Source: an uncultured delta proteobacterium
GTDB taxonomy: Bacteria; Desulfobacterota; Desulfobulbia; Desulfobulbales; SURF-16
Assembly: GCA_963729825.1 (NCBI GenBank)
Contig: CAVSQR010000081.1
Coordinates: forward strand, 1,111 to 65,110
Length of the DNA: 64,000 nt
Reading direction: 5' to 3'
Shown here: positions 2,684-29,196 of the stretch, in pieces
Position numbering within the stretch: the stretch's first letter is position 1
Layout of the letters: each line of letters starts with the position of its first letter
The notes under the pieces: generated by a model
What the model saw: only the letters and a program-made list of their open reading frames with translations
Database searches by the model: none
What the model was told of the DNA's origin: nothing
Made by a program: the position numbers and the translations under genes

Positions 2684-2705
2684 TTACTTGAGATCGCAAT
2701 AAAAA

Positions 2706-2736: not shown

Positions 2737-2762
2737 TTGCCTGTATCTGAATCGCTCCTGCT

Positions 2763-6696: not shown

Positions 6697-8382
6697 ATGT
6701 TAAAAAAAATCTCGACAATCGCTTTGGCCGGACTCCTCACGCTGCCTGCCATGGCTACCGCCGGCAGCACCAATGCCACCAGTGATCTGGCTGCACAGGT
6801 TGACCGGCTGACCCAGGAACTCGCCAATTTAAAAGCACAGATGGCGGCCATGAAAGAGGGTCAGGGCCCGGCCACTGACATGAAGGCCCAGAAGGAAATC
6901 GCCGATCTGAAAAGCCAGATGAAAGCCCTGGAAGATAACCAGAAACAAGCTTTTGATGATCTTGATGAAAAAAGCGCTGCCTGGGATCTTGCTTCCCGCG
7001 TTCAGCTCTTCGGCGATTTCCGCGCCCGGGGTGACTGGTACAAGAATGATCTGGTTACAACCCCGTTGACAGAGATGCCGTTTGCTGGCATTCTGCAGCA
7101 TATCCAGCTAACGATATGGCATATTGGGGGATCCAGACCAACTTATGAATCCGATGACGAGATGGAAAATACCTCCATATTCACCAACCGTTTCCGGCTG
7201 AATATGCGGGTCAAGGCCACCGAGAACGTGGATTTCAAGGGACGTCTGGCCATGTATAAAACCTGGGGCACCAGCACCCTGCCCCCCAACCTGACCCAGT
7301 TCGGCTACCCCTCTTTTGACGGAACGTCAGCTCCCGTGAGCCGAGTGACTCGATTCTCCGCGTGGACCGCGCCTTTGTCAACTGGAACAATATCGGCGGA
7401 CAGCCGGTCTGGTTTTCCGTCGGCCGTAGGCCCACCACCGATGGCCCTGCTGCCCAGATCCGCATGGGCCTGGATGAGAGAATGGCAACCCCGACCGCAT
7501 ACATGGACTGGCCTTTTGACGGAATTTCCGTGGGTTATGCCTATGCCAACCTGTTCGGCATGCAGGACGCACCCGGCCGGGTTCGTATCTGTTACGGCCG
7601 CGGTTTTGAAAACAGCCTGCAATACGACACCACATCAGTGGATCTGAACGACACGGATTTTGCCGGCGTCAGCTGGGATATCTACAATAAGGGCAATAAA
7701 CTTGCCTATCTGCAGTCTTTCATGGTCTTCAATGCCTTTAATTTTCCGCAATTCGACGATAGTGCCACCAACGATTTTTACACACATGTTCTTGGGATGT
7801 TAGGCCAGCGTGAAAATGTCGGCGATGTGCTGCATACCTCCGGCGTCTATATGGATAAATGGGAGAATTTGAATTATTTTGTTGAAGGTGGCTGGAGCCG
7901 CACCATGCCGGATAGTGATACCGGTATGTTTAATGACATATGTGTCTTCGCCAGCTACAAGGACAACCTGCACCTATACCAATGACGACAATGAGGATGG
8001 CTATAATATCTGGGTAGGCGCCCGCTATGACATGGACGACCTGGGACTCAAATTCGGTCTTGAGTACAACCACGGCTCCCAGTACTGGATCGGCATGACC
8101 CCGGGTCATGATGATCTGTACACCTCCAAACTGGCCACCCGCGGCGATGTCTACGAGGCCTACCTGATCTGGGATCTGCCCACCGGCGAGGCCATTTCCA
8201 AGTATGCCAAGACCTTCATGCGCTTTGGTTATCAGCATTATGACTATGATTACACCGGTGGTTCAGACTGGAATATCAAGCCTTACGACATAATAAAGCA
8301 GAAGGTGAAGCCTTGGCCATGCTTGTTACCCTCCATCGATAAAGCTGATCAGGTCTATGTGACCTTTGAGGTGTACTTCTAA
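6697..8382 (+). CDS. outer-membrane beta-barrel (porin-like) protein with N-terminal coiled coil, possibly DUF3373 family (frameshifted as assembled)
   Basis: Fragments 6661-7647, 7362-7985 and 7879-8382. GGAGGGAG precedes the ATG at 6697. The protein has the signal peptide MLKKISTIALAGLLTLPAMATA, a coiled coil of about 90 aa (LTQELANLKAQMAAMK..KSQMKALEDNQ), and a beta-rich body ending VYVTFEVYF. The family name is from memory, not searched. Frame changes lie near 7330-7360 and 7930-7980. Confidence 0.6.
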
Positions 8383-9379: not shown

Positions 9380-10733
9380 ATGCAAACCAATCCCCGTCAT
9401 CTTGCCATCACCATCCTCTGCCAAAGGCAGGAGACCGGTCAACCGGTTGATCTGATCCGGGACAACATCCTGAACAAGGCCATGCCGGCCAACGCCAAAG
9501 ACTCCCAGCTCGTCACCGCCCTGGTTTACGGCGTGCTCCGCTGGCAGCGCTTTCTTGACGCCATCCTGCAGGATTTTTCCAGCCACCCGTTGGCAAAAAT
9601 GAAAAACCTCACCCTCCAGGCCCTGCGGGTGGGACTTTTTCAACTCTGCTTCATGGACCGCATTCCCCCTTCCGCGGCAGTTAATGAAACGGTCAAGGCA
9701 CTGAAGGAGTCCAGACAGCCCAAATGGCTCACCGGCTTTGTCAACGGTCTGTTACGCAACATTGCCAGACAGACGGAGACCCTGCCCGGCCCCTGGGACA
9801 ATAATCTGATGCCGCCGGCCGTGCGCCTCAGCCATCCGGACTGGCTTTATCAACGGTGGCTTGCCCGCTACGGCGAAAATGTGGCAATACAGAATCTGCA
9901 CAGCAAATAACCACCAGGCCCCTCTGGTTCTCAGGGTCAACACAAAACTCCTGCCGCGGGAAGGCTTTATCCAAGAACTGGAAAAGAGCGGCATAGCCGC
10001 CCAGCCCGGCATTTACTGCCCCGAGGCGGTTGTGCTCCCGGATTACCGGGGGGATATTGCCGGCCTGCCCGGTTACGGGCGCGGCACATTCATGGTGCAG
10101 GATGAGGGGGCCCAGCTGATTTCCCTGCTGCTGGGTCCGTTTGGCCCGGGAAAGTACCTCGATGCCTGCGCCGGTCTGGGCGGCAAAACCGTGCATCTGG
10201 CCCAGCTCATCCCCGAAGACAGCCAGGTGGTGGCCATCGAACCCAATCCGCTGCGCTTTAAACTGCTCCAGGAGAATGCCAATCGCATGGGTCTTGCTGA
10301 CCGGATAAGCTGCCGGCAAACCGGGCTGGCTGACTTTCTGGAGAAGACAGACGAAAATTTTGCAGCCATTTTAGTTGACGCGCCCTGCTCCGGCCTGGGC
10401 GTGATCCGCCGCCATCCGGATATCCGCTGGAACCGCAGCCCGGATGATCTGCAACGCTATCAGGCCGTCCAGCTCACACTACTCTCTCAGGCGGCGGCAC
10501 TTCTTGCTCCCGGCGGGGTGCTGGTCTATGCCACCTGCAGCATCGAGCCGGAAGAGAATGAGGAGGTGGTGGCGCAATTTCTGGCAGCCCAGCCCCAATT
10601 TGCACTCAGCAGTCCACCCTTTTTCCCGCCGGCTGCCCAGCGGTTCGTCAATAACAAAGGTTTTTTCCAGACTCAGCCCGACGAAACCCTGGACGGCTTT
10701 TTTGCCGCCAGACTGGTGAGTCGCAAGGAGTAG
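9380..10733 (+). CDS. rsmB: 16S rRNA (cytosine967-C5)-methyltransferase RsmB/Sun (one frame change)
   Basis: Fragments 9380-9910 and 9861-10733. A NusB-like N-domain is followed by SAM-MTase motifs DACAGLGGKT, ILVDAPCSGLGVIRRHPDIRW and LVYATCSIEPEENE. The frame change is near 9880-9900. Confidence 0.9.
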
Positions 10734-10810
10734 AGGCGGTTCGCGAACCGCCTCTACTCCAGTTCAGTTTCTCCTCACTCCTTACTACCTTACTCCTCAC
10801 TTTTCACTTA
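10730..10810. repeat. 28-nt perfect palindrome (bidirectional terminator-like) plus GTRAGGA heptamer tract; related copy at 63735-63815
   Basis: GTAGAGGCGGTTCGCGAACCGCCTCTAC overlaps the rsmB stop codon. It is followed by CTCCTCACTCCTTACTACCTTACTCCTCACTTTTCACTTA, which reaches the stop of the convergent gene. Confidence 0.8.
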
Positions 10811-11991
10811 CTTCGGCGCACGGATGTCAAAACGCGGCATCCTCATCATCCTGCCGATCTCCTCCTTCAGATTAACCTGATCAGGATTTTCGATGCTGTG
10901 GGTCATCAGATTGGCAAACAGTTCATCCTGCTCCATCGGATGGGCATGCTCGCTGGGACCTTCGCCCTCCAGCTGAATATGGGCTGCCCAGGGAACAAAA
11001 TAGTTCGTTGTCGGGAAATCGTCGTATTCGGAAATATCGAGATTGAGTCCGGCGATATAGAGAAGATTTCTCCCTTTGTAATCCGAACCGCGGCGAATGG
11101 ATTCCACCACCCGGGCGAATTCCAGCTGGATATTGATCTTGGCGGCCCGCAGGGGAGGATTCTGGAGCAGTAACGATGTTGGGCATGAATTCGATGATAT
11201 TTCTTTCCAGCAGGATCGATTCATCCGTTTCATGAAAGTCTTCCCGGAAGAAAAACAGCTCTTCGGTCAGCAGATCGCCGATGGGTTCCCCCGCCCCGCT
11301 CTTCCATCGATAGCCGGTGGCATCAACACGCTGGCGGAAGTCATCGGATACTTCGTAGACCTGTGAGGTGCTTGCTGCGGTAATAGGACGGACCAGGCCG
11401 CCATTGTACATCTTGGCAATATTCTGCAAACGCAGGACCAGGCCATCCTTGACAGGGTGAAAGGCAAAGTCGACAAAGGAATTCTTGACGGTGATCAGAT
11501 ATCTGCCCTGTTCGTCACGGTGCAGAAAAATTCGATCTTTGGCAAACCGGTATTGTTCCAGGTAGGGGGTAATGACATGGGTGAGTTTGCCGCAGGAGTC
11601 GCCGACACATTTGCCGATGCGCTGCGGCCGGGCGTATTTCCCATAAATGCCGGTTTCATGATCATAGCCCACATGGCTTGCCTGGACAATGAGCAAGATC
11701 CTCCCCATGATGGGAGTGGGGACCGTGCCTGTCAATGGCCATGATGCCGCCGACGCGGCCATGATTAAAGGGGAAAATCCCAAAATGCTTGGTGAGCAGA
11801 ATAATGGGCAGGCCTTGATTTTCATCCGAGCAAAAAGCCCTGGACGGCATGATCAACCCTTTTCTGAAGCCAAGCGCTTTACAGAAATTATAGAGCCTGG
11901 GCACAAACTCCGGATAGGGCATTGCCAGACCATCAACCTTGAATGGCGCCAACTTTCTTGTCACGTAGTACTCCCGGTATTGCCTGAACAT
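10808..11991 (-). CDS. conserved hypothetical protein, Cys/His-rich (possible metalloenzyme; frameshifted as assembled)
   Basis: Fragments 11662-11991, 10923-11825 and 10808-11233 join into about 395 aa. The text reads ...SRAFCSDENQGLPIILLTKHFGIFPFNHGRVGGIMAIDRHGPHSHHG...LIVQASHVGYDHETGIYGKYARPQRIGKCVGDSCGKL... and ends RMPRFDIRAPK. No family assignment could be verified. Confidence 0.6.
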
Positions 11992-12263: not shown

Positions 12264-13034
12264 TTATTTGAAATAATTCAACAGGGCATGCAGGGTGGTG
12301 AGGGGGTGTGGCGGGCAGCCGGGAATATAGAGATCCACCGGAATCAGGCTGTTCAGGTCGCCGACCACCTCGGGGCTTCCCCGGAAAGGCCCGCCGGAAA
12401 TGGAACAGCTGCCGCTGGCAATAACCACCTTCGGCGCCGGGACAGCCTCATAGGTGGTCAGCAGAGCGGCCTGCATATTCCTGGAAATCGGCCCGGTAAC
12501 ATGAATGCCATCGGCATGCCTGGGAGAGGCGACAAACTGGATCCCGAAGCGGGCAAGATCAAAAAACGGGGTATTCAAAACATTGGTATCGGCTTCGCAG
12601 GAATTGCAGCCGGCGGCGGAAACCTGGCGCAGCTGCAGGGAGCGGCCAAACAGTTTTTTAAAATGTTTTTTTGCATTGTCGGCAAGCCTGGGCAGGTTGC
12701 CATCGGTCAGCAGATGTTCTTTTTTGGCAACGCCGAGTTCAAAGTTCTGGGTGAACTGGACAAAATCACCCTTTGACAGGGTTTCGCATTGGCCGCAAAA
12801 AACACAGCGGCCGAGATCAATCAGACCATTATCGGCATCAATCGCATCCTGCGGACACAGGTCGGCGCATTTCTTCATAAGTGCTGCCGGGCAATTCTTG
12901 TGAACTTTCGGCATCCCCCGGTATCTCTTATTGAGGGTAATCGGCGCTTTCGGATATTTTGAGGTGCGGCACCCCTGCTCCATTCTATTCTGTATTATTT
13001 TCAACATTCCAAAATCCTCATTGGCTTTGCGCAA
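12264..13034 (-). CDS. Hyf/Ehr-type small subunit (NuoB/HycG-like) with N-terminal ferredoxin-like extension
   Basis: Intact ORF; the likely start is M10 at 13007. The N-terminal part carries CADLCP and CVFCGQCE Fe-S motifs. The C-terminal part is NuoB-like: GCNSCEAD, PRHADGIHVTGP, ASGSCSISGGPF, YIPGCPPHP. Confidence 0.85.
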   Translation of the reverse strand: MRKANEDFGMLKIIQNRMEQGCRTSKYPKAPITLNKRYRGMPKVHKNCPAALMKKCADLCPQDAIDADNGLIDLGRCVFCGQCETLSKGDFVQFTQNFELGVAKKEHLLTDGNLPRLADNAKKHFKKLFGRSLQLRQVSAAGCNSCEADTNVLNTPFFDLARFGIQFVASPRHADGIHVTGPISRNMQAALLTTYEAVPAPKVVIASGSCSISGGPFRGSPEVVGDLNSLIPVDLYIPGCPPHPLTTLHALLNYFK

Positions 13035-13083
13035 AAGAGCAACAATAGGCAGCGTAGCTGCTCACAAAATCGAAACCAAGCCC

Positions 13084-14592
13084 TTACAGATCAAAGCCGC
13101 AATATGAAAGGTTAAAGCTTTTATTGCAGAGCGGAAAATCCGATATCCCCTGATTGCGAAGCGCCATGGCCAGTCCCGTCCAGTTGTGAAACGAAGGATC
13201 TTTGACCTTGTAGCGCAGGATCTCGCCTTCCGGACCTGTCAGCAGGCAATGGGAAGTTTCTCCCCGCCAGCCTTCATTAATGGTGACGACAAAGGAGGAC
13301 GGCGCAAGCTTGCAGTCGCCGGCCAGAACACTTTCCGTCTCGACCTGTTTTGCCAGCAATGTTTCGATCAACAGAAAGGCATGCGCTATTTCCTCTCTTC
13401 TGACCGTGGCCCGGCTGGCGACATCGCCATCGGTCTTGTTATTAATATTAGCAGGCAATTCAGCATAGCATTCGGTGGGAAAACTGACCCGGGCATCATA
13501 AGCAAGACCTGAGGCCCGTCCCGCATAGCCGACAAGGCCGAGCTTTTCCGCCGTTTCCCGGTCAACCGTCCCCGTGAGATCAAAACGGGCCTGGACGGTG
13601 TGGGCCGTAAACAGCAGATCACAGACATGTTCGACCTCAGGCTTTGTTTCCTTTATTTTGTCGATGAGGAGCTGGCGCTGCTCCTGGCCCATGGTATAGG
13701 CAACGCCTCCGGGCCGGACCAGACCTTTGCCGAAACGGTTGCCGGAAAGCACCAGCAGGAGATTGAGAAATTCGCCTCTGAGCCGACCGAAATAAGCCGC
13801 CGGCGGGTTAAAGGCCACGTCACCGCTCAAGGCGCCGAGATCACCGACATGGTTGGCAATACGTTCCAGCTCAAGGGCAATGGTGCGGACGATTCTGGCC
13901 CCCTCATCAACGGCCAGGGAGCCCAGGGATTCCATGGCCTGGGCGTAGCACAGACTGTGGCCGATGGCGGTATCGCCGGCAATGCCTTCAACGATAATGG
14001 GCATCCGTTTCCTCGGCACCTCAAGCAGCATTTTCTCAACGCCGCGATGCTGATAGCCGAGCTGGATCTCCAGGTGGAGAACCTCTTCGCCGATGCACTG
14101 AAAACGGAAATGCCCCGGCTCAATGATCCCGGCATGCACCGGCCCCACGGCAACCTCATGAATTGCCTCGCCTTCCACCGGGAAATAATCGTAATTGCCG
14201 GGGATATCCTGGGTGTAATCATTGCCGAAGATATCTTCCCGCTGCCGGAAGTTGGCATGATAGCGGACATGTTTGAGCCACGGATGCTCATAAGGCCGCA
14301 CCCCGTACTGTTCGGCGATCTCCCGCTCGAACATGTGAAATTTTTCGCAGTCTGCGGTCAAGGCATGATAGGCTTCGGCAACATCACTGCCGGTGACATA
14401 AAGTCCACCATCATTACGCAAGACGGCCAGGACCTTCAGTACGCCGTTATCCTCATAGGCAAAATAGTGGACGATCTGGCCGCCATCCAAGGCGAATCCC
14501 GATAATTCCTGGCGAAAAACATGAAAAGGCAGATGAGGGATATCGCTTCGTTTTACTGTTTCGCCGTTTGCAATTTTAAGGAGGTTACCCAT
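13084..14592 (-). CDS. Hyf/Ehr-type large subunit (NuoC/NuoD- and HycE-like), canonical Ni-Fe cysteine ligands absent
   Basis: Intact 502-aa ORF with VGPVHAGIIEPGHFRFQCIGEEVLHLEIQLGYQHRGVEK. The position of RxCGxCxxxH reads EGIAGDTAIGH. The C-terminus reads PLCNKSFNLSYCGFDL instead of ..DPCxxCxxR. Confidence 0.85.
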   Translation of the reverse strand: MGNLLKIANGETVKRSDIPHLPFHVFRQELSGFALDGGQIVHYFAYEDNGVLKVLAVLRNDGGLYVTGSDVAEAYHALTADCEKFHMFEREIAEQYGVRPYEHPWLKHVRYHANFRQREDIFGNDYTQDIPGNYDYFPVEGEAIHEVAVGPVHAGIIEPGHFRFQCIGEEVLHLEIQLGYQHRGVEKMLLEVPRKRMPIIVEGIAGDTAIGHSLCYAQAMESLGSLAVDEGARIVRTIALELERIANHVGDLGALSGDVAFNPPAAYFGRLRGEFLNLLLVLSGNRFGKGLVRPGGVAYTMGQEQRQLLIDKIKETKPEVEHVCDLLFTAHTVQARFDLTGTVDRETAEKLGLVGYAGRASGLAYDARVSFPTECYAELPANINNKTDGDVASRATVRREEIAHAFLLIETLLAKQVETESVLAGDCKLAPSSFVVTINEGWRGETSHCLLTGPEGEILRYKVKDPSFHNWTGLAMALRNQGISDFPLCNKSFNLSYCGFDL

Positions 14593-16013
14593 TCAAACCA
14601 CCCCCGATGGCTGTGATTGCGTTGATAATCGTTTGATAAAGACTTTCCGGGAGCCACACACAGAGGACCGCCGAGGTCAACAAAAGCGCATAGGAGGGCA
14701 GGATCCGCAAAAATTTTTCCTGCACCAGGATATCATTATCATGCTGGGCAAATGACATGCGCATGACGAGACGCGCGGCACCGGCAAAAATGAGGATAAG
14801 ACAGAAAATGAAAATGGTGATGCTGACAAAACGGCCGCTGCGGAAGGCTCCGATGATGATCAGCAGCTCACTGATGAATATGCCGAATGGCGGGAAGCCT
14901 GAGATCCCGGCAAAACCGGCAAAAAAGGCGATAAAAGGTCTTGGGCAGCAATTTCGCCATATTGCCTGTGTTCCTGATCAGTTTCGTGCCGTAGCCGAGA
15001 AGAATATTGCCGGACGACAGAAACAGGGAGGACTTAATGAGCGAGTGATGGATCAGATGCAGCATGGCCCCGTACGTGCCCAACCCCCCGATGGCGATAC
15101 CGAAGGCAATGATCCCCATGTTTTCGATACTCGAGTAGGCCAGCATCCGCTTGTAATCGGTCTGATTCATAATAAAAATCGCCGCAACGGACATGGACAG
15201 CAGACCGAAAACAATAAGGACATTGCTCGAATAGGCGCCGAGCCCTGCAGCATAGAGCAGGGTGTGGGTCTTATAGACCCCGAGAAACGCGCAGTTCAGC
15301 AGCGCGCCTGACAAAAGGGCTGAGGCAGGACTGGGAGACTCGCTGTGGGCGTCGGGAAGCCAGGTATGCATGGGCGCAAGTCCCATCTTGGTGCCGTACC
15401 CGATGACCACAAAAACAAATCCCGCCTTGAGCCAGACCTGATCGAGACTTGCGGCCACGGCTTGCAGGGCGGAAAAGGAAAGCGGCACATCCACCTTGCC
15501 GATGTCCATGGACAGGGTGATGAAGAAAGACCCGAGTAGAGCCAGGGCAATGCCCACCGAGCAGATCAGCACGTATTTCCAGGTTGCCTCCAGAGCCTCT
15601 TTGGAGCGATGCACAAAGATCAACGGGGCGCTGACCAGGGTGGTCGCCTCGATGGCTATCCACAGGACGATGAGATGATCAGCCAGAGTCACCATGCTCA
15701 TGGCAGCCAGGAAAAAAAGCATGCAGCCGATAAAAACATGCTCATTCTCCATTTCCGTCTCTTTCATGTAGGAAACGCTATAAATAGAGATGAACAGAAA
15801 GATGAAGGAGGTGACCAGAAGCACCAGGGTGCCTTCCGGAGTGGCGCGGAAATAAGCATCAAACATTGGTGCTGAGATCTTCAGCCAGCACATCCCGGTC
15901 AGCTGCACATGCAAAAGAGCGGCGATGACAAGAATGATCCTGCCGAGCTTCACAGGGAGAAAGGTTGCCATTATTCCGGCAAACAGGGGTATGAGGAAAA
16001 CCAATTCTAACAT
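14585..16013 (-). CDS. Hyf/Ehr-type antiporter-like membrane subunit (NuoN/NuoM/HyfF-like; one frame change)
   Basis: ORF 14868-16013 plus about 95 further codons in another frame (FIAFFAGFAGISGFPPFGIFISELLIIIGAFRSGRF... to TAA at 14585-14587). The frame change sits in a 4-nt homopolymer near 14933-14936. The stop overlaps the next start (ATGGGTAA). Confidence 0.85.
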
Positions 16014-16017
16014 ATTC

Positions 16018-16671
16018 TCAATCCTTTAATCTGCCAAGCAGTGCGGTGTCCACATCGTCAAAAGCGCTGTTGATGTTATGCAGAACAATACCCATAATCA
16101 TCACGCCGACCAACAGATCGAGCAGCACGCCGAATTCAACCACGTACTGAGTATGAGATTCCTTTGCCAATGCCGCGCCCACCAGATAGATACCATTTTC
16201 CATCATCAGGTAACCAATAACCTGGGTAATCGCCTTGCGTCGTGCCATCAACAAAAAAAGACCTGAGGCCATGGTGGTGATGGCGGTGATCAGCAGCAGG
16301 GCATGGCCGCCGGGAAGGGAAATATTCAGTTGTTCAGTAATATAGGCTGAAATAACGATAAAGGCCAAACCGGTAAAAAGTGAGGCATGATAGCCGACAA
16401 ACGGCTCGACCTCCGTTCTGATTTTTACCTTGTTTACGGCAATATACATAAAACCGGGGATAAGGATCCCTTTAATCAGAATCATGATCTGCAGAAAAAG
16501 AATACTGCCGGCGCCAATTCCATGTTGCTGATCAAGAAACAATGGCACCAGGGAAACCAGAACCCCTTGAAAGGCCATTATCCTGACTAATCCTACAAGC
16601 CTGTTTGAACTTAATGACAAAAGAACGGACAGCAGCACAAGGGACAGTATTGCATCGGAAAGCTGTATCAT
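16018..16671 (-). CDS. Hyf/Ehr-type small membrane subunit (HyfE-like)
   Basis: Intact 217-aa polytopic membrane ORF. Its length and position match hydrogenase-4 component E, and it overlaps the upstream gene by 4 nt. Confidence 0.75.
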   Translation of the reverse strand: MIQLSDAILSLVLLSVLLSLSSNRLVGLVRIMAFQGVLVSLVPLFLDQQHGIGAGSILFLQIMILIKGILIPGFMYIAVNKVKIRTEVEPFVGYHASLFTGLAFIVISAYITEQLNISLPGGHALLLITAITTMASGLFLLMARRKAITQVIGYLMMENGIYLVGAALAKESHTQYVVEFGVLLDLLVGVMIMGIVLHNINSAFDDVDTALLGRLKD

Positions 16672-17585
16672 TGGACGAACTCCATGGTAAGAATGGCCGC
16701 AAAAAATACCAGGGCAAAGGAGGTCAGAATAAACTTGGGCACCAGATCCATCTTGTATCTGGCCATAATGGATTCCGTTATCCCCACGAAAACGTAAATC
16801 AGGCCCATGATGCCGTAGAAGATCAGGCCGTTCAGATAGACGTTATCCAGTTGAAAGGGATAAAGCAGACAGGTGATAAAGGCGGAATAAAAAAACAGCT
16901 TCAGGTAGGCGCCCAGTTCAATAAGGGCAAGATCCGGCCCGCTGTGATCAAGAATCATGACCTCGTGAATCATGGTCAACTCAAGATGGGTAGCCGGGTC
17001 ATCCACCGGAACCCTGGAGTTTTCTGTCAAAAGAACGATAAACAAGGCGAAAATGACCAGCAGCAGCAGCGAAGCAACCGGACTCCACAGGTTGATGGCC
17101 GTTGGTCCTGTGAAGAAGGCGGCAAAGCTGAAAGAGCCGTTCAACCGGTAAAAAAGCAGCAGGATAACAAAGAGTGTCGCCTCGGCAAGCGTGGAAAAAT
17201 AGGCCTCTCTGGCCGCTCCCATACCCTCAAAGGGTGAAGCAGTATCCAGGGCGGCTATAATGGTGAAGAATCGGCCAAGCCCCATGAGATATAAGAGGAT
17301 GATCACGTCACCATGAAAGGATAAGAGCGGTTTTATCCCGGCGAAGGGGAAAAAAAGCAGCACCATGACCACGCTGCAGAAGGATACCACCGGCCCCAGC
17401 TTAAAAACAAAACTTGAGCTGGTGCTGTACACCGAACCTTTCTTAAAAAGCTTGGCAAGGGTATAGTACTTTATCAGAATGGGGGGACCCTTTCTTCCGG
17501 CAATGTACGCCTTTACTTTCATAATAATTGCTGACAGGAAAGGTGCAGCAAGTATAGCGAAGCAGAATGATACGATTGATTCCAT
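16668..17585 (-). CDS. Hyf/Ehr-type NuoH/HycD/HyfC-like membrane subunit
   Basis: Intact 305-aa polytopic ORF with NuoH-like segments: ASPFEGMGAAREAYFSTLAEA and VDDPATHLELTMIHEVMILDHSGPDLA. Confidence 0.85.
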   Translation of the reverse strand: MESIVSFCFAILAAPFLSAIIMKVKAYIAGRKGPPILIKYYTLAKLFKKGSVYSTSSSFVFKLGPVVSFCSVVMVLLFFPFAGIKPLLSFHGDVIILLYLMGLGRFFTIIAALDTASPFEGMGAAREAYFSTLAEATLFVILLLFYRLNGSFSFAAFFTGPTAINLWSPVASLLLLVIFALFIVLLTENSRVPVDDPATHLELTMIHEVMILDHSGPDLALIELGAYLKLFFYSAFITCLLYPFQLDNVYLNGLIFYGIMGLIYVFVGITESIMARYKMDLVPKFILTSFALVFFAAILTMEFVQ

Positions 17586-17633
17586 CCATTACCTCTGTAG
17601 ATTTTGCAGTTGTACCGATTCCATGCCTGAACT

Positions 17634-19592
17634 TTAGAGAAACAACAACATCACGATGATTGCCGCAACAATATAGGCGATATAGAGATGAATATTCCCA
17701 TGCTGTATCCAGCGCAGCATCTGCAGCAGATGAAAAAACGGTTTGATTATCATTTCGTGAATTTTGCTTTCCGCGACATCAATTACCTCGGTATGATAAA
17801 TCGTCTGTCCCGGAAAAATCTTCCTGATGCCTGAATAAAAAGTCTTTACCGGGACAAAGGGGCGGTAAAAATCGATCATGGAAGCGGCATAGGAAGTGCC
17901 GGTATACTGCATTCTGACCGTGGGCCTGGTAAAACCGCACCCCCAGGTTGGCCCGGCACTCACTTCCTTCCGCCAGTAAAGCAGCTTGCGCAAGATCGAA
18001 ACGGCCAGAAACAGGGCAATAAAAAGAGCAGCGGTTTTGGCGATGTTGCGCAGGATAACAATAAAAGTATCCGGGTTATAAGCAGCCACCAACGGAAGAT
18101 CGCCGATACCCTTAAAAGCCAGACGGACAAAAGGTTCCGGCAGAACGCCGATCAGCAGACATGCCGCGGCAAGAAAAACCATGGTCAGCTTCATTGAAAA
18201 ACCAACCTCGCTTGCCTGAGCGGCCTTATCGGTCCGCGGCTCACCCAAAAATGCCAGCCCTACCACCTTGGTGAAACAGGCAGTGGCAAGTCCTCCTATT
18301 ACTGCCAGCGAGATGATGGCAAGCGCGGAGAGAATAAACGCGGTGCGCTGGAGATGAATCCCCTGAAAACTGCCGTAATAAATGAGAAATTCGCCGATAA
18401 AGCCACTGAATGGCGGGAGGCCTGAAATTGCCAGAGAGCCGACCAGAAATGTGCGGCCTGTGACAGGCATTCTTTTTAACAGCCCCCCCAGCTGATCGAT
18501 AGATCGTGTTTTTGCCTTATGCAGTACAGCCCCGGCCCCCATAAAGAGAAGGGATTTGAATATCGAATGATTAAAAACATGCATGAAGGCGCCGGCAAAA
18601 CCGAAAAAGGCCATGGCCTGGGTTCCGGTAGCCACCCCGAGCATACCCACTCCGAGACCGATCAGAATAATCCCGATATTCTCGACACTGCTATAGGCCA
18701 GCAGCTTTTTCACGTCCTGGTTGCCAAGGGCATACACCACCCCAAGAACCCCGGTGACCATGCCGACAATCAGGACGATCTGGGCAAAAATCATGGAGGG
18801 TACGGCAAGCAGGGCATACATGCGGATGATACCGTAGATGCCCATCTTGATCATCACTCCGGACATGATCGCCGAAATATGGCTTGGGGCAGCCGGATGG
18901 GCGTAAGGCAGCCAGATGTGCAGCGGAAAGATACCTGCTTTCGAGCCGAAACCGATGAAAGCCAGGACAAAAACCACGAGTTTTACCGTGTCGGGAATTG
19001 CCGCGAATCCCGTGAAAGCAAAACTGCCGGTATAGCTGTAGATAAGCGCAAAGGCGGCAAAGAGAAACATGGCACCGCCCTGGGCAAAGATAAAATAAAG
19101 GTAGCCGGCCTGCCTGGTATCTTTATTTTGAAAGTCATAGACGACAAGAAAATATGAAGAAATCGACATGATTTCCCAGGCCAGGGCAAAGGTGGGAATA
19201 TTGTCTGCACAGGCAACCAGGGCCATGGAAACGATCAGAATCGCGTTAAAGAAATAATTGATCGCCGTTCTGGTGGAATGCTCCGGTTTTTCCATATAAT
19301 GGAAACTATACAGCACGGCCAGCGGTGAAATAATAAAGATCGGGACAAGAAAAAAAGCGGATATACTGTCCATCTGAAAGGACAAGGTAAAGATATGCAA
19401 CCACGGCAGGGAATATGTCGCGGCAGCACCTGGGTGCAAGAGCACGGAAAGGGCGTCAAAGAGTCCCAGTATGCAACCAGCGGCAATCAGGACGCAACAG
19501 CCTGCTTTCATCATCGTGAAATGCCGATGCATGAGGAGAGGCAGAACACCGCCACATACTATCACAGCAAGAGACAGAAAAAAGGTATCCAT
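17634..19592 (-). CDS. Hyf/Ehr-type NuoL/HyfB-like antiporter subunit
   Basis: Intact 652-aa ORF with proton-antiporter motifs (GSKAGIFPLHIWLPYAHPAAPSHISAIMSGVMIKMG, LLAYSSVENIG). It is the first gene of the operon. Confidence 0.88.
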   Translation of the reverse strand: MDTFFLSLAVIVCGGVLPLLMHRHFTMMKAGCCVLIAAGCILGLFDALSVLLHPGAAATYSLPWLHIFTLSFQMDSISAFFLVPIFIISPLAVLYSFHYMEKPEHSTRTAINYFFNAILIVSMALVACADNIPTFALAWEIMSISSYFLVVYDFQNKDTRQAGYLYFIFAQGGAMFLFAAFALIYSYTGSFAFTGFAAIPDTVKLVVFVLAFIGFGSKAGIFPLHIWLPYAHPAAPSHISAIMSGVMIKMGIYGIIRMYALLAVPSMIFAQIVLIVGMVTGVLGVVYALGNQDVKKLLAYSSVENIGIILIGLGVGMLGVATGTQAMAFFGFAGAFMHVFNHSIFKSLLFMGAGAVLHKAKTRSIDQLGGLLKRMPVTGRTFLVGSLAISGLPPFSGFIGEFLIYYGSFQGIHLQRTAFILSALAIISLAVIGGLATACFTKVVGLAFLGEPRTDKAAQASEVGFSMKLTMVFLAAACLLIGVLPEPFVRLAFKGIGDLPLVAAYNPDTFIVILRNIAKTAALFIALFLAVSILRKLLYWRKEVSAGPTWGCGFTRPTVRMQYTGTSYAASMIDFYRPFVPVKTFYSGIRKIFPGQTIYHTEVIDVAESKIHEMIIKPFFHLLQMLRWIQHGNIHLYIAYIVAAIIVMLLFL

Positions 19593-20070
19593 AATCCCCC
19601 TTTTGCAAAAATTACCTTAATGCATATATCAGCGGCAACCCGAAAGTGCACTACCCCCTCACGCTCACTACAGACTATCCTAGTAATCGCATCAATGACG
19701 GCCAGAGGAGTTATTTCAGCCCCTGCCGGCTGTTCTTGGCAGGCGGCGAAATTGTGGCCTTTAATACAGCTCTCATGTTCGTAAAGTCAAGCAAAAAATT
19801 TCTTACAATTTTGTTTTTTTAATTTTTTGATTTTCTATTCGCTAAGTTATCAGTATAATAATAAAAAGAGTGATAATACTTTTCCCTCTCATAAGCGTTA
19901 CTTAAAAAAATTTCTCTCTTTCTCCACGACCAGCCTTCTGATATTATTTTGATCGCCAATACACATCCTGCAGGTTACACTGTTTTTAATTTGTACACTC
20001 TATATTGTTTCCATTCCCATAATAAACCATTTTTCTGTATACTCCTGTATACTCTAAGTTTCTTTACCTT

Positions 20071-22905
20071 ATGGAACCTGACACTATCCGTATCCGGGGC
20101 GCCCGGATGCACAACCTGAAAAATATTGATGTTGATCTGCCGCGCAACCGGCTGATCGTTTTCACGGGCCTGAGCGGCTCCGGCAAATCCAGCCTTGCCT
20201 TTGACACCCTTTATGCCGAAGGGCAACGGCGTTATGTTGAGTCTCTTTCAACCTATGCCCGCCAATTTCTCGGCCAGATGGATAAGCCTGACGTTGACTC
20301 ACTGGAGGGATTATCTCCGGCCGTATCCATCGAGCAGCGCACTACCAGCCGCAATCCCCGCTCCACCGTGGGCACGATCACGGAAATCTATGACTACCTG
20401 CGACTGCTTTTCGCCAGGGTCGGCCATCAGCACTGCCCTGACTGCGGCCGGGAAATCCGTCCCCAGTCCATCGAGAATATGGTTGACACCTTATTGTCCA
20501 TGCCGGAGGGGACCAAGTGCGTTCTGCTTGCTCCCCTTGTTGACGGCAGAAAAGGAGAACATGCCGATATCCTGAATAAACTCCGCAAGGAAGGGTTTGT
20601 CCGCGTCAGGATTGACGGCGAATTCCGCAATCTCGATGAAAAAATCGAGCTTGCCAAAACAAAAAGGCATACCATTGAGGCGGTGGTTGACCGCATTGTC
20701 ATCAAACCTTCAGCCAGACAGCGACTTGCCCAGTCCACCGCCACTGCCGTGCAGCTTACGAATGGTTTTCTGCTGGCCTCTCTTCCTGATACCAATGAGG
20801 AAAAACTTTTCAGCGAGCGGGCGGCATGTGTGCAGTGCGGCACGAGCCTGCTTGATCTGAGTCCCCAGCTCTTTTCCTTTAATAACCCCAAAGGGGCCTG
20901 TGAGGAATGCGGCGGACTCGGGGTGAAGCATTTTTTCGATCCCCATCTGGTTGTTCCCGACCCCAGCCTCTCCCTGCGCCAGGGGGCCATCGCCCCATGG
21001 CGGAATCGGGCATCGTCATCCTATTCCAGTCAACTGCTTGAGGCCCTGGCCAAACATTATTCCTTTACGATGACAACACCTTTTGCCAGGCTGCCGGAGA
21101 AGGCCAGGAATGCTATCCTCTATGGAACAGGCCGGGAGTCCATCTTTTTTCACTATGCGCGGGGCAGCCGCACGCTCACCTCGCAAACGCCTTTTGAGGG
21201 TGTTTTACCGCAGCTTGCCCGGCTTTACCTGGAAACAACCTCAAGCGCCAGCCGGGATGAACTTGCCCTATTCATGAACGAACAAACCTGCCCGGCCTGC
21301 CATGGAGCGCGGCTGAAACCATCTGCTCTGGCGGTACGTGTCGGCCAGTGGGCCATCCATGAACTGACCGCCCTAAGTATTATTCAGCTGGCGGCGGAAT
21401 TACCGCGCATCAATTTCAGCCAGCAGGAACAATTCATCTCCGAGCCTATTATCAAAGAAATCCATAACCGGCTCACCTTTCTGCTTGACGTCGGACTCGG
21501 CTATCTGTCCCTGAACCGGACCGCGGCAACCCTTTCCGGCGGTGAAGCCCAGCGTATACGGCTGGCCTCACAGATCGGCTCACGGCTGGCCGGCGTTCTC
21601 TATATTCTGGATGAGCCGAGTATCGGTCTGCATCAGCGGGATAATGAAAGACTGATCAAAACCCTGACCAATCTCCGCGATATCGGCAACACGGTGATTG
21701 TTGTCGAACATGACAGTGAAACGATCGCTGCCGCCGATCATGTGCTCGACATCGGGCCCGGAGCCGGTGTCCATGGCGGCCAGGTTATTTACAACGGACC
21801 GGTGGCCGGTTTGCTCGCAGAAGAAGCCTCGCTGACCGGGGGCTTTCTTTCCGGCCGTCTTGAAATCCCGATACCGGCCAAAAGACGTCAGCCTCGATCA
21901 AAAAAAGATTGGATTCATCTCGCCGGATCTGCAGTAAACAATTTGAAAAAGGTGGATACAAGTTTTCCCCTCGGATTGATGACATGCGTCACCGGTGTAT
22001 CCGGCTCAGGCAAAAGTTCACTGGTCATGGAATGCCTTTTTAAAGGCGCCAAGGAAGGCTTGGGCAAATCAAGCTATGATGGCGCAGGACAGTTTGGCTC
22101 CATTACCGGTCTTGATAAAATAGACAGCGTTATCGATATTGACCAGAGCCCCATTGGCCGTACGCCCCGCTCAAACCCCGCCACTTACACCGGCGTGCTC
22201 ACCCCGATTCAGAGAACTGCTTGCCCGCCTGCCCGAATCCCGGGCGCGGGGCTATAAACCGGGCCGTTTCAGCTTCAATCTGAAAGGAGGTCGCTGCGAG
22301 GCATGCGAAGGAGACGGGGTGATCAAAATCGCCATGCATTTTCTGCCCGATATCTATGTAACCTGCGAGACATGTAATGGAAAGCGCTACAACCAGGAAA
22401 CACTGGAAATCAGGTACCGCGGGAAAAACATCTGCGGAAATTCTGGCCATGAATGTGGAAGCGGCTCTGCAATTTTTCACCAACATCCCGGCTATCAAAA
22501 ATCGTTTGCAGGCCCTGGTGGACGTGGGCTTGTCCTACATCTCTCTCGGCCAGTCGTCTGTAACCCTTTCCGGCGGGGAGGCCCAGCGGATCAAGCTGGC
22601 CCGCGAACTGCGCAAACGGAGGTACGGGTAAAACCCTCTACATACTTGACGAACCAACCACCGGTCTGCATCCCGCAGACATCAAATACCTGCTGGCAGT
22701 GCTTTCCCGGCTGGTTGACAATGGCAATACGGTTGTTATCATTGAACACAATCTCGATGTGATTAAAACTGCCGATTACCTCGTTGATCTCGGACCCGAA
22801 GGAGGGGATGAGGGTGGTGAGATTGTTGCTGAGGGGACGCCCGAGGAAATAGCAAAAGCACCAAAATCATATACCGGTATGTTTTTAAAGCAGATCCTGA
22901 CATGA
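20071..22905 (+). CDS. uvrA: excinuclease ABC subunit A (three frame changes as assembled)
   Basis: Fragments 20071-22257, 22139-22762, 22377-22631 and 22699-22905. The text reads [52 protein letters not shown], with two ABC modules (LSGGEAQRI twice) and zinc-finger Cys pairs. Frame changes lie near 22205, 22435 and 22625. Confidence 0.95.
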
Positions 22906-23593: not shown

Positions 23594-25277
23594 TTACGGC
23601 AAGACAACCGGTCTAAGAAGTATTACCAATTCTTTTCGTTCTTTGAGCCGCGCCGCTTTCTCCAAAGAGTTTGCCGCCCGGGCCCGGAATATCTCCCAGA
23701 CCCGGGATCTGCGACTCGGAATAATCGCTGGTACTATCAATTAATCCGCCGACGATCAGCATCTCGCCGTTTTTTATCTTCACCAGGGTCGTCATTTCCC
23801 GGATATCCACTTCCGGCAGGCCTACTTCACTTCCGGCTGTGCCGAACTGCTTATACTCAATGGGGGTCTTAACCTTTGACGTCACTGGCGTCAAGGTGAG
23901 AATCACTTCATTGTCATCAACGATCGTGGCAATAACAGCCATACCCAGCCCGGACATCACGCTTGAGGTTTCCACACTGTATGTGACCACGCCGTCTTCT
24001 ACACTGACGTCCACGTTGTTAATATAGGTGAGGGTCGAGCCAACGGATATCATGGCCGGTTGGCCGTTCATCACGCTGAGTTTGGGGTTGGAAATAACCT
24101 CCACATGGCCCTGTTCTTCAATGGCATCCAACACAAGGCCAAAGTTCTGGGTATTGATCGTGAGAAATTTATTCTGGGTGCCCAAGTCATGATACAACGG
24201 ATTCAGCTTCTGAAAATCCATGGATAAACTAAAGGGGTTGCCGGGATTCTGCAGCAGATCTTCCCAGTTGATACCTGTCCTGTTGTCCGCAGAGAGGGTC
24301 ACCTCCACAATTTTGGCCTCAATAGACACCTGCCTGTACAGCTCTTTTTTAAGGTTTTCTATATAATTGCCAACTTTTTCCAAAAGTGACCGGGGCGCGG
24401 TAACGGTAATCAGACCGACAGGCTTATCAATTGTATAATATCCTTTGCCGGGTTTCCGGTTGGAGACCACAGCGGGCTGCGCGGTTTCAGCGCCTGCCAG
24501 CATCTGCTGGCCTGCCGGTGCTGCGGGCGGGGTTACAACCTCTTCAGTGGTCCAGATATCGAGTATCTGATCAAGATTCTGCCTGATATTTGCCCAGATA
24601 TCAAAGCTGTTGGCATTTTCAGGCTGACTGGTAATCTGTATTTTGCCTGTCATCTCATGGGATGCCACCTTATTGCCGCCGAGCACATCCCCACCAACGC
24701 CCATATTGAACTGGGGTGACATAAACGGCATGGCAATATGGAATTTTTTGGTTTCCTTGTGTTTGACAATGATGGAATTTCCTTTCACCTCATGAAAATA
24801 ATCCAGCTGACGCAGAATATTGTCAATGGATTCAAAAAAATCATCCTCTGCCCTGATATCAACATCAACAAGAGCACCCTGGTCAACATCATTGGCCCAG
24901 CTGACATTCATCCCCTTCAACACCGCAAGTTTCTTCATAATTTCCCTGAGGGAGACAGGGGCGGCATTAGATGAAATATCTGCTCCCACAGGGATAGCAA
25001 AATCATCTTTCCCGGTATTCTCTGTTTCGGAAAGCAAAAAGGTTGGTTGCTGAAACCGGGAAGGCAATTCGGCCGGCCCAACCTTCTCCTTTTCAGAGTC
25101 GTCCGACTGGAAGGCATCAGCATTAACAGCTTGTGAAGTATGTTTTTTCAGAAAATCCTGCGCTTGCTGTTCTCCTTTGAAATCCGGTGCTTTTTTCGAA
25201 CAACCGGCAAGAAATGAGAACAGCATTAAAGAAACCAGGATCAGTGCGCCACTTCTCAACCTGTGTCTGAAGGGCAT
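23594..25277 (-). CDS. type IV pilus/MSHA-type secretin, lipoprotein form (PilQ/MshL-like; one frame change near the 3' end)
   Basis: ORF 23613-25364 trimmed to M30 (MPFRHRLRSGALILVSLMLFSFLAGC, a lipobox). The secretin core reads RQVSIEAKIVEVTLSADNRTGINWE...VISNPKLSVMNGQPAMISVG...IPGLGDIPGPGGKLF. After an indel in an A4 run near 23634-23637 the text continues KELVILLRPVVLP and stops near 23594. There is no AMIN domain. Confidence 0.85.
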
Positions 25278-25436
25278 ATCGGTGTTTTGCCGATTTTCCA
25301 GGCAAATGCTCCCCTGCGACCCATGACAAGAAAAGCGTGTTATCATTTTCATCTTTATTTCCATACCTTTCGTGGCAGACAGTGGCTGGTAACACTTCAG
25401 CCTGCCCGCAGCCTTTGAGAAATGAAGTCAGGACTT

Positions 25437-27883: not shown

Positions 27884-27907
27884 TTTTGCGTGTACATTTG
27901 TGGAGTT

Positions 27908-29155: not shown

Positions 29156-29196
29156 GACACTCTTTCGCTTGTACTTAAAAGGTGCATCAAATATAC

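Follow-up and report, generated by a model that had tools for sequence, protein, structure and literature searches.

Complexes of the energy-converting hydrogenase-related (Ehr) class are relatives of the group-4 membrane-bound hydrogenases and of complex I, which are defined by missing Ni-Fe ligands and have no known function (PMC6349859; PMC10284858; PMC12342949). The class was named from the genes GSU0739-0745 of Geobacter sulfurreducens, which include those for EhrA-1, B, C, D, L, and S (Coppi, 2005; Marreiros, 2013), and the subunit names EhrA, B, C, D, L, and S are used here as in PMC7894505. In published trees, Ehr stands beside group 4f (PMC10284858). High amounts of Ehr subunits are present in Geobacter grown on formate, where they were detected and found to be regulated (PMC7894505), and H2 does not induce Ehr in Nitrospira moscoviensis (PMC12342949). 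Here, an Ehr locus is described from an uncultured delta proteobacterium of the Desulfobulbales (SURF-16), on contig CAVSQR010000081.1 of assembly GCA_963729825.1. The window, that is, the whole stretch of DNA that was analysed, covers 64,000 nucleotides (nt; positions 1,111 to 65,110 of the contig, forward strand), and coordinates below are those of the window unless a related locus is named.

The locus can be regarded with high confidence as a six-gene operon, ehrABCDLS, encoding a functional membrane complex of the Ehr class which resembles Hyf (formate hydrogenlyase 2) and complex I, has no Ni-Fe site, and is not a hydrogenase in decay. Assignment to the Ehr class, proposed by a sequence-only reading of this DNA, is supported by motif loss, orthologues in the genus Geobacter, and gene order. 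The locus has the defining features of Ehr, and it lacks those of a [NiFe]-hydrogenase, of a quinone-type complex I, and of the sulfane-sulfur reductase MBS. Geobacter Ehr has the same six subunit types in the same order, likewise has no Ni-Fe Cys, and likewise keeps the proximal cluster. In a comparison drawn from Geobacter proteins other than those of G. sulfurreducens, the orthologues are 43-46% identical and have identical AGDT and DFPLCNKSFNLSYCGFDL motifs. EhrL of G. pickeringii is 46% identical over its full length, and Geobacter sp. and Geomonas carry the same motifs. The lineages differ in three respects: in the Geobacter type and in most other phyla, a gene encoding an HTH_17 + PTS-EIIA protein lies directly upstream, unlike in the window; most of the Ehr family has two clusters in the NuoI-like domain, whereas this clade has one; and this clade, unlike Geobacter Ehr, is linked to a gene for a protein resembling LCIB.

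Gene content and subunits of the operon

The operon runs from 19592 to 12264 on the minus strand. It begins with ehrA (17634-19592), which encodes a HyfB/NuoL-like antiporter-type membrane subunit of 652 amino acids (aa), followed by ehrB (16668-17585; a HyfC/HycD/NuoH-like membrane subunit, 305 aa), ehrC (16018-16671; a HyfE-like membrane subunit of 217 aa whose C-terminal half resembles NuoK), and ehrD (14585-16013; a HyfF/NuoN-like antiporter-type subunit, ~475 aa). The last two genes are ehrL (13084-14592), for a NuoC+NuoD/HyfG-like "large subunit" of 502 aa without Ni-Fe ligands, and ehrS (12264-13007), for a fusion of a HycF/HyfH/NuoI-like and a HycG/HyfI/NuoB-like protein (247 aa). The open reading frame (ORF) calls agree with the earlier description of the genes as co-directional and tightly packed. 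The overlaps of 4 nt (ehrB/ehrC) and 8 nt (ehrD/ehrL) were borne out, whereas the range of 0-50 nt given for the gaps is exceeded between ehrL and ehrS, which lie 76 nt apart when ehrS is read from its ATG. This ATG at 13007, giving 247 aa, is a more likely start than the TTG that gave a small subunit of 256 aa, because the homologues have 239-250 aa and the match to the HycF-like model starts there.

The operon had been counted as seven genes; the actual number is six, the seventh ORF arising from one extra T within ehrD. Three-frame translation shows ehrD as an ORF of 381 aa, with the C-terminal remainder of the protein in a different frame. In an alignment with the syntenic reference locus L003 (89% identical, from a Desulfurivibrio sp. 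metagenome bin), the sole gap in ehrD is one extra T in a T-run (TTTT/TTT) at ~14936, and ehrD is one unbroken 475-aa ORF in L001, L003, and L084-L086. At least seven further genes of the window are frameshifted: uvrA (20071-22762), rsmB (9380-10733), a DUF3373 gene (6661-8382), ligA (45243-46971), an aldolase/SDR gene (42417-44616), sulP, and the LCIB-like gene. Of these, L003 has unbroken copies of uvrA, rsmB, the DUF3373 gene, sulP, and the LCIB-like gene. Because so many window genes are split while their L003 copies are unbroken, the breaks are ascribed to assembly indels, a base-level check having been made for ehrD. Indel errors seem to be systematic in this assembly, and genes of the window that look like pseudogenes should not be taken as such. 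Therefore, ehrD is not a pseudogene.

The HyfB-, HyfC-, HyfE-, HyfF-, and HyfG-like assignments and that of the NuoB small subunit, all made before any database search, agree with Pfam and NCBIfam. EhrA matches Pfam Proton_antipo_M (2.8e-58) and the NCBIfam model "hydrogenase 4 subunit B" (562 bits, under its cut-off of 667), EhrB matches Pfam NADHdh (3.2e-32), and EhrC matches the NCBIfam model "hydrogenase 4 membrane subunit" (2.5e-22), with a weak Pfam Oxidored_q2 match at residues 126-205. When the subunits were compared by BLASTP with Hyc, Hyf, and Nuo of Escherichia coli K-12, the best match of every one was its Hyf/Hyc counterpart, at 26-41% identity. EhrA is 36% identical to HyfB, EhrB 29-31% to HycD/HyfC against 20% to NuoH, EhrC 32% to HyfE, EhrD 38% to HyfF, EhrL 26-29% to HycE/HyfG, and EhrS 37-41% to HycG/HyfI and 31% to HycF/HyfH. 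Among solved structures, searched by HMMER against PDB sequences, the best relatives of EhrL are HycE (7Z0S_E; 5e-39) and MbhL (6CFW_L; 1.7e-36), followed at a distance by Nqo4 (1.7e-22) and MbsL (6U8Y_L; 2.6e-18).

The residues of the NuoL/M/N proton channels, namely the TM5 Glu, the TM7 Lys, a Lys in the TM8 region, and the TM12 Glu, are present in both antiporter-type subunits; those retained are E140, K218, K249, K346, and E401 in EhrA, and E122, K209, K327, and E382 in EhrD. With E. coli Hyf (HyfA-J) and Hyc (HycB-G; 7Z0S), the complex thus shares the antiporter channel residues, together with the EPGHFRF loop and the CxxC...C...C pattern of the small subunit. Unlike these enzymes, it has neither Ni-Fe ligands nor the HycI-type extension, and no genes for HyfA/HycB, HyfD, HyfJ, FdhF, or Hyp proteins lie nearby; HyfH and HyfI, which are separate in E. 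coli, are fused in EhrS. It differs from complex I in having two antiporter-like subunits instead of three and one HyfE-like protein, with no NuoA and no separate NuoJ or NuoK.

The former Ni-Fe site and the Fe-S clusters

The claim that the large subunit has lost all four Cys ligands of the Ni-Fe site holds: relative to E. coli HycE and HyfG, the ligand columns change from C, C, C, C to A, T, S, G. At the first motif (L1), RxCGxCxxxH is replaced by EGIAGDTAIGH (residues 202-212; 13957-13989, minus strand), in which the Cys residues become Ala205 and Thr208, and Gly206-Asp207 is near-invariant in the family. HMMER and MAFFT both pair EGIAGDTAIGHS with DRVCGICGFAHS of HycE, a motif that HyfG shares. 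At the second motif (L2), NLSYCGFDL stands against DPCYSCTDR, the Cys residues becoming Ser496 and Gly499. This former motif, PLCNKSFNLSYCGFDL (residues 487-502; 13087-13134, minus strand), is followed directly by the stop codon, whereas its counterpart in HycE, PLIIGSLDPCYSCTDR, is followed by a tail of 32 aa (HMMER against chain E of 7Z0S; MAFFT). In the HMMER alignment, PLCNKSFNLSY of EhrL aligns with PLIIGSLDPCY. The end of EhrL, SYCGFDL-stop, coincides with the mature end of HycE, CYSCTDR, and, in line with the earlier account, there is no cleavable C-terminal extension. The second register check, by MAFFT with E. coli HycE, HyfG, and NuoCD and members of the family, agrees with HMMER, so that both registers leave the four columns without Cys. 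Conserved anchors flank the sites, with GH after L1 and DFPL, NKS, and D-L/R around L2. No in-frame TGA occurs at the ligand columns, and selenocysteine is therefore no explanation, even though the window contains a tRNA-Sec (2586-2679, plus strand; Rfam, 71.5 bits). Since the large subunit has no Ni-Fe site, the complex cannot make or consume H2, in agreement with the missing induction by H2 in Nitrospira (PMC12342949).

An extra Cys498 (in SYCG) lies one residue before the fourth ligand column, and many family members have S or A there. Cys489 and Cys498 as a new metal site were rejected for the family as a whole, their co-occurrence being weak (CC 34, xx 31, Cx 22, xC 6). Genes for Hyp proteins, HycI, formate dehydrogenase (FDH), carbon monoxide dehydrogenase (CODH), and HycB/HyfA were not found among the annotated ORFs of the window, which confirms the earlier account. 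The acylphosphatase ORF at 44588-44869 is not the beginning of a hypF gene but stands alone, encoding 93 aa, beside ligA and the aldolase/SDR gene. A partner oxidoreductase (FDH, NuoEF, or CODH) adjoining the operon was also looked for, and none was seen in the window or in the Desulfobulbales loci. For this reason, the idea of an FDH-Ehr association (PMC6349859) is unsupported here.

The replacement of the ligands is a property of the family; about 100 of the nearest clusters at the 50%-identity level show it. An exhaustive search with EhrL through 1.84 billion cluster representatives yielded 703 clusters at E <= 1e-30. In about 89 of the 93 alignable nearest representatives of such clusters, (A/S/C)-G-D-(T/S/N) and SYxG replace both CxxC motifs, and more than 200 homologues from independent assemblies carry the same residues in the ligand columns. 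Only four of the nearest representatives keep all the Cys residues (P0211, P0234, P0260, and P0270). Their motifs, ERICGVCAASHA … NKSFELCYSCTDR, are group-4f-like, and they are only 33-35% identical. The putative hydrogenases of group 4f (Ehf) are thus the nearest ligand-keeping relatives of Ehr; they have in common with it GPIHAGIIEPGHFRF and PLINKSF...Y..DR/L at a C-terminal end without extension, and they differ from it in keeping CGxC and CxxC. Among 43 sequences with a mean identity of 39%, the invariant columns of EhrL cluster in residues 149-164 (the GPVHAGIIEPGHFRF loop), G206/D207, and residues 486-501, the very segments that lie around the Ni-Fe site of true hydrogenases. The last 18 residues of EhrL, DFPLCNKSFNLSYCG(F/H/N)DL, are near-identical from Desulfobacterota to Planctomycetota, Chlamydiota, and Melainabacteria.

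In a scan of one genome per GTDB species, Ehr loci were found in at least 598 species. They occur in Desulfobacterota, including Candidatus Electrothrix gigas, Geobacter, Geomonas, and Pelobacter, and also in Planctomycetota, Verrucomicrobiota, Spirochaetota, Gemmatimonadota, Acidobacteriota, Omnitrophota, Melainabacteria, Chlamydiota, and others. Most of 80 loci from many phyla, with Geobacter, Geomonas, and Pelobacter among them, retain the order A-B-C-D-L-S. In a single comparison with L003, covering five of the six genes (ehrD left out), the ratio of nonsynonymous to synonymous substitution (dN/dS) was 0.115 for ehrA, 0.048 for ehrB, 0.062 for ehrC, 0.107 for ehrL, and 0.074 for ehrS; this range, 0.05-0.12, is that of purifying selection.

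EhrS joins a HycF/HyfH/NuoI-like domain (residues ~1-115) to a HycG/HyfI/NuoB-like domain (~116-247). By BLASTP, the match to HycF/HyfH/NuoI spans residues 1-105 and that to HyfI/HycG/NuoB residues 97-243; in NCBIfam, numbered on the 256-aa ORF, residues 10-114 match "formate hydrogenlyase iron-sulfur subunit" (4.2e-18) and residues 141-253 the NuoB family (2e-32). The Fe-S cysteines of the small subunit are kept, as claimed: C134, C137, C201, and C231, the N2-type set, are found in 53-55 of 55 homologues. They include the CNSC motif of hydrogenases, not the tandem CC of complex I. The N-terminal ferredoxin-like segment that had been noticed is present; in this clade its Cys suffice for a single complete [4Fe-4S] cluster. 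The NuoI-like part retains C51 and C68/C71/C74, and the second set is missing throughout the Desulfobulbales clade, whereas in most of the wider family this domain has eight Cys, enough for two [4Fe-4S] clusters. We take the retained cluster to be the N6b equivalent, next to N2, from the ligand pattern of Nqo9. Three of the eight NuoI-domain Cys (EhrS residues 36-80) are gone in the Desulfobulbales clade and one more in a Desulfobacterales clade (L010-L018), which suggests that the electron wire is being shortened in some lineages. The idea that loss of the distal cluster tracks the LCIB-like neighbour was rejected, as the loss is clade-wide and includes loci without the LCIB-like gene. Low dN/dS, near-invariant N2 Cys, kept channel residues, and a conserved pocket together argue for a functional Fe-S complex and not for a decaying hydrogenase.

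The LCIB-like gene and other neighbours

Downstream of the operon, 272 nt 3' of ehrS and on the same strand, lies a gene for a protein resembling LCIB, or theta-carbonic anhydrase (10808-11991, minus strand), which carries two frameshifts here and is a candidate partner of Ehr. A simple scan detected no terminator-like site between the two genes. In relatives the LCIB-like gene is unbroken, encodes 393-397 aa, and is annotated everywhere as hypothetical (L003 12610-13803; L006 3518-4699; L008 3706-4878; also in L084-L167). The family comprises 2413 proteins at E <= 0.001, most of them unnamed; all named matches carry Desulfobulbales or Thermodesulfobacteriota/"Proteobacteria" labels. Single-sequence phmmer of the protein against PDB gave no match, and the family profile matched PtLCIB4 marginally (E 0.2), so a fold search was needed. 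The AlphaFold model, built with 30 homologues and of moderate quality, has a mean predicted local distance difference test score (pLDDT) of 71.6 and a predicted template modelling (pTM) score of 0.76. Its top five Foldseek matches in PDB are PtLCIB4 (5B5Y/5B5Z/5B60) and 6KFS, with probability 0.99-1.00, target TM 0.60-0.64, and E 2.5e-3 to 2.7e-2, and the probability of every other match is at most 0.12; the model thus points to an LCIB fold. About 25 of 120 homologues carry a precomputed LCIB_C_CA match. The motifs CSDE (C54, D56) and SHVG (H106) align with those of PtLCIB4 and are invariant in the family; C133 (SCGK motif) is also invariant and has the expected spacing, although it lies outside the stretch aligned with PtLCIB4. 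In beta- and theta-carbonic anhydrases, such motifs reportedly supply the first Cys and the His of the zinc site as well as the catalytic Asp. By eye, the protein has no obvious N-terminal hydrophobic signal, and it is therefore taken as cytoplasmic, on the side of the peripheral arm of Ehr.

The linkage to Ehr recurs. All four LCIB-like proteins that were located by exact identity sit directly upstream of an Ehr operon. In 80 metagenome loci collected with the LCIB-like profile, Ehr genes adjoin the LCIB-like gene in 29 of about 44 with usable flanks. There are two arrangements, in which the LCIB-like gene either precedes ehrA…S or follows it, as in the window; L143 has one on both sides. The adjacency is found with three different Ehr lineages, including the other Ehr paralogue in L087, which has the EIIA gene, an extra antiporter subunit, and an EhrL 46% identical to that of the window. 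In L162 a divergent LCIB-like/Ehr pair is also adjacent. A beta-carbonic anhydrase gene (Pro_CA) lies directly 3' of ehrS in L086 (19182-19772) and L140. About 6 kb further downstream in the window there is a frameshifted gene for a SulP/STAS anion transporter (3214-4929, minus strand), a possible accessory of uncertain membership. Both of its fragments match Pfam Sulfate_transp; in NCBIfam it scores 412 bits with the sulP family and 132 bits, against a cut-off of 880, with the BicA model. SulP adjoins ehrS or the LCIB-like gene in L085, L088, L089, L094, L095, L100, L101, L116, L135, and L137, and stands directly 3' of ehrS in several loci (e.g., L085 19238-21182, L088, L089, L135, and L137). 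With the beta-carbonic anhydrase genes, this strengthens the impression that the surroundings of the operon have to do with inorganic carbon or anions. Literature searches found no report of a recurrent link between Ehr and an LCIB-like gene. This adjacency is the part of the results that could raise the value of the locus.

An LCIB-like gene in L121 follows a canonical nuoH-I-J-K-L-M-N set (478-7941), with a GAF-PAS kinase gene in between. It was rejected as an independent association, because the contig ends 252 nt past the LCIB-like gene and L085 has a GAF-PAS kinase in the corresponding upstream place; the organism has a standard complex I and, presumably, Ehr as well.

A sigma-70-like promoter is predicted from the sequence upstream of ehrA (19761-19790, minus strand), with TTGACT, an 18-nt spacer, TATTAA, and a preceding A/T-rich tract. 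The block, AAATTTTTTnCTTGACTTTACnAACATGAGAGCTGTATTAA, is conserved in L003, and the leader 3' of it diverges. The putative 5' leader between the promoter-like block and the ATG of ehrA (19593-19760, minus strand; ~170 nt) has no Rfam family match and is poorly conserved with respect to L003. Since sigma-54 two-component regulators flank related loci, a sigma-54 promoter was also sought; there is no consensus upstream of ehrA, and counts across the window are under chance. Loci of the Desulfocapsaceae type have one or two copies of a gene for a protein of ~80 aa upstream of ehrA or of the LCIB-like gene (L001 4144-4386 and 4500-4766; L007 4231-4830; L008 3411-3641; L009 4013-4324; L086 9740-9982). 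Its motif is IGITQxP … VGPF … W..Y … W(Y/F)GFTFE, with no match in Pfam or NCBIfam, and a sigma-54 response regulator and a sensor kinase often adjoin it. TrkAH follows the Ehr operon in L001.

Among the accessory genes of Ehr, the one that is best conserved in the family is missing from the window. It encodes a fusion of an HTH_17 (excisionase-type) domain with a PtsN-like PTS-EIIA domain and lies directly upstream of ehrA in 39 of about 83 loci outside Desulfobulbales, ~100-800 nt before ehrA in the loci L020-L083 (e.g., L023 4136-4924; also L087 11251-11937). It was seen in Planctomycetota, Verrucomicrobiota, Spirochaetota, Geobacterales, Gemmatimonadota, and Acidobacteriota, and is presumably the seventh gene of GSU0739-0745. 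The neighbour statistics are from tblastn, as the simple ORF caller is poor in high-GC loci.

Possible functions of Ehr in Desulfobulbales

The explanation we favour, and hold to be somewhat better than even, combines the Ehr identity, a redox-coupled ion pump, and a layer specific to the lineage. In the pump, a low-potential cytoplasmic donor, most plausibly ferredoxin, would reduce the single [4Fe-4S] cluster in the NuoI-like domain of EhrS. From this N6b-equivalent cluster the electron would pass on to the NuoB-like domain with its N2-type cluster, and reduction and protonation would take place at the remodelled pocket that replaces the Ni-Fe site, at the junction of EhrL, EhrS, and EhrB. 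The pocket would consist of (A/S)-G-D-(T/S), NKSFNLSYxGxDL, and the GPVHAGIIEPGHFRF loop, and, by way of EhrB and EhrC, events there would reach EhrA and EhrD, the subunits that would move H+ or Na+. This scheme is regarded as slightly more probable than not.

For the lineage layer, the closest precedents are NDH-1MS/MS' (CupA/CupB) and DAB (DabA-DabB), in which a carbonic-anhydrase-type protein is likewise genetically tied to NuoL-type subunits. The recurrence of SulP, a family with bicarbonate-type transporters, and of beta-carbonic anhydrase near Ehr adds to the likeness. The Desulfobulbales protein differs from CupA and DabA in being of the LCIB/theta type and in having anaerobic hosts, and its link to Ehr is one of gene neighbourhood. 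The precedents also differ in what drives them, NDH-1MS-CupA being driven by ferredoxin and DabAB by the membrane potential. That a carbonic anhydrase on a complex-I-type module can work vectorially is an established principle (bioRxiv 10.64898/2026.03.13.711513, on DAB2). By analogy, Ehr of Desulfobulbales together with the adjacent LCIB-like protein, and often SulP, may couple proton translocation to directional interconversion of CO2 and HCO3-, a proposal that is put forward tentatively. The Fe-S-wired, Hyf-derived proton module would drive or gate the conversion, helped by SulP and sometimes by beta-carbonic anhydrase. It is possible, though rather doubtful, that Ehr and the LCIB-like protein form an unrecognised vectorial carbonic anhydrase in Desulfobulbales, including cable bacteria and relatives of Desulfurivibrio. 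Either direction could be useful, because related cable bacteria are reported to be autotrophic and to use the CO2-consuming Wood-Ljungdahl pathway (PMC6976610).

A number of observations weigh against the pump or the carbon layer. No Ehr complex has been experimentally assigned a donor, an acceptor, or a transported ion. The distal cluster of the ferredoxin domain is lost in this clade, which leaves the docking site of the donor unclear. In complex I of Thermus thermophilus, His38 (beta1-beta2 loop) and Tyr87 of Nqo4 hold the quinone head group; these residues are absent from EhrL, where Ile157 and Gly206 align with them. As for the neighbour, it misses the cut-off of Pfam PF18599 LCIB_C_CA (scores of 19.0 and 23.5 bits, just short of 25), the loop with the putative metal site in its model (residues 47-96) has a pLDDT below 50, and neither the third zinc ligand nor the Arg of the Asp-Arg dyad is confirmed, position 58 being Asn. 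About 15 LCIB-like loci with usable flanks have neither Ehr nearby nor another consistent neighbour, the Desulfocapsaceae-type Ehr operons of L001, L007, and L009 have no LCIB-like neighbour, and no LCIB-like gene was found beside Ehr loci outside Desulfobulbales. SulP may be a plain sulfate permease in these sulfur-metabolising hosts.

Other functions have to be weighed against a ferredoxin-driven pump with a carbon layer. The complex may instead be a ferredoxin:menaquinone oxidoreductase, a stripped-down complex I that pumps ions and with which the carbonic-anhydrase-like neighbour has nothing to do. Desulfobulbales use menaquinone, the Fe-S wire and the ion channels are unbroken, and the architecture parallels that of the ferredoxin-dependent NDH-1/Fpo-type enzymes; an interaction of Ehr with quinone has also been speculated on (bioRxiv 10.1101/765248). 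However, the His and Tyr that ligate quinone in Nqo4/NuoD have become Ile and Gly, and EhrL is far closer to HycE/MbhL than to NuoD (5e-39 against 1e-10 to 1e-22). In addition, Riflemargulisbacteria have Ehr although a quinone biosynthesis pathway was not found there (PMC6349859), and the canonical nuoH-N genes in L121 would make Ehr redundant in that organism. On balance, a menaquinone-linked enzyme is considered unlikely.

Still less probable is a redox-independent or redox-gated, Mrp-like cation/proton antiporter for pH and ion homeostasis, with a structural or regulatory Fe-S arm. The antiporter-like subunits are unbroken, no conserved partner oxidoreductase adjoins the operon, and the distal Fe-S cluster is gone in this clade. 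Elsewhere the commonest neighbour is the HTH_17 + PtsN-like EIIA gene mentioned above, with its 39 of about 83 loci; in E. coli, proteins of the PtsN type are regulators of K+ and ion homeostasis. The TrkAH genes after the L001 operon point the same way, and the vectorial carbonic anhydrase DAB2 needs no electron transfer (bioRxiv 10.64898/2026.03.13.711513). Against these points stand the strict conservation of the N2-type Cys and of the N6b-type cluster, and the fact that the former catalytic pocket is conserved best of all, which are hard to explain for a structural arm.

MBS of Pyrococcus furiosus, a group-4 relative without the Ni-Fe site, reportedly reduces polysulfide at an Fe-S cluster. 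Like Ehr, MBS/MBX (6U8Y) is derived from group 4, has lost the Ni-Fe site, and has kept the Fe-S wire and ion translocation. A sulfane-sulfur (polysulfide) reductase of this kind would suit sulfur-disproportionating Desulfobulbales. The hosts do metabolise sulfur (PMC6976610), and 6U8Y is among the matches of EhrL. Such a function is nevertheless very improbable, as the match to MbsL (2.6e-18) is 20 orders of magnitude weaker than that to HycE, and the subunits are Hyf-like, unlike the 13-subunit MBS set with its Mrp-type module. Nothing in the window indicates a sulfur substrate. The pocket is, moreover, near-identical in Planctomycetota, Verrucomicrobiota, Chlamydiota, and Melainabacteria, which to our knowledge do not respire sulfur.

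A drifting, non-functional relic of a hydrogenase is hardly tenable. In its favour, all four catalytic ligands are lost, one gene seems frameshifted, and Ehr of Geobacter KN400 was suggested to be non-functional (PMC13194489). This statement is contradicted by the selection data given here: dN/dS is 0.05-0.12, gene order is kept across at least 598 species, and the motifs and Fe-S ligands are near-invariant. The frameshift in ehrD is a homopolymer indel, of which this assembly has many, and the gene is unbroken in relatives; in Geobacter, the Ehr proteins are detected and regulated (PMC7894505). Finally, a true Hyf/Hyc-type [NiFe]-hydrogenase whose ligands were missed through register, indel, or selenocysteine, which public names such as "hydrogenase" and "Ni,Fe-hydrogenase III large subunit", the tRNA-Sec in the window, and the existence of Sec-containing group-4 hydrogenases (PMC13582414) might suggest, can be dismissed almost entirely, since two independent alignment methods give one register with conserved flanking anchors, the same residues recur in more than 200 homologues, no in-frame TGA is present, the ORF ends where mature HycE ends, and the annotated ORFs of the window include neither hyp nor hycI.

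Elsewhere in the window there are an ordinary tRNA gene (547-620, plus strand) and a type IV pilus assembly cluster (23613-30381, minus strand), with a PilQ-like secretin (23613-25364), an AMIN-domain protein, and PilM (29197-30381). The tRNA-Sec indicates that the organism probably makes selenoproteins (e.g., formate dehydrogenase or hydrogenases encoded elsewhere). Around the pilus cluster, G+C (0.40-0.47) is below that of the remaining window; it is 0.59-0.63 at 42000-48000 and 60000-62000, compared with ~0.50 around the operon. Long spurious antisense ORFs occur in the high-G+C parts, such as 42744-44156 (minus strand), which has no family match.

The Ehr class itself is already known (Coppi, 2005; Marreiros, 2013), and what is new here is the LCIB-like linkage in Desulfobulbales. 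Ehr stands at the evolutionary junction of hydrogenases and complex I, and its function was still called unknown in 2025-2026 (PMC12342949). To this the locus adds quantitative evidence of strong constraint exactly at the former Ni-Fe site. In public databases, homologues of EhrL (P0002-P0120, P0391-P0510) are named "hydrogenase", "Ni,Fe-hydrogenase III large subunit", "NADH-quinone oxidoreductase subunit C", or "carbon monoxide-induced hydrogenase". These public names are misleading; because widespread Ehr complexes are routinely annotated as hydrogenases or as NADH dehydrogenase subunits, hydrogen metabolism is over-predicted. The "Hyf-type hydrogenase" of groundwater cable bacteria (PMC6976610) may be a misnamed Ehr. 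The carbonic-anhydrase-like linkage provides a testable inorganic-carbon hypothesis for Ehr in cable bacteria and their relatives. If true, a carbonic anhydrase would have been recruited independently once more, after CupA/B, DabA, and the gamma-carbonic anhydrases of mitochondrial complex I, to a module of the complex-I type, and for the first time in strict anaerobes. The Ehr class, which was named about twenty years ago, would also gain its first functional handle.

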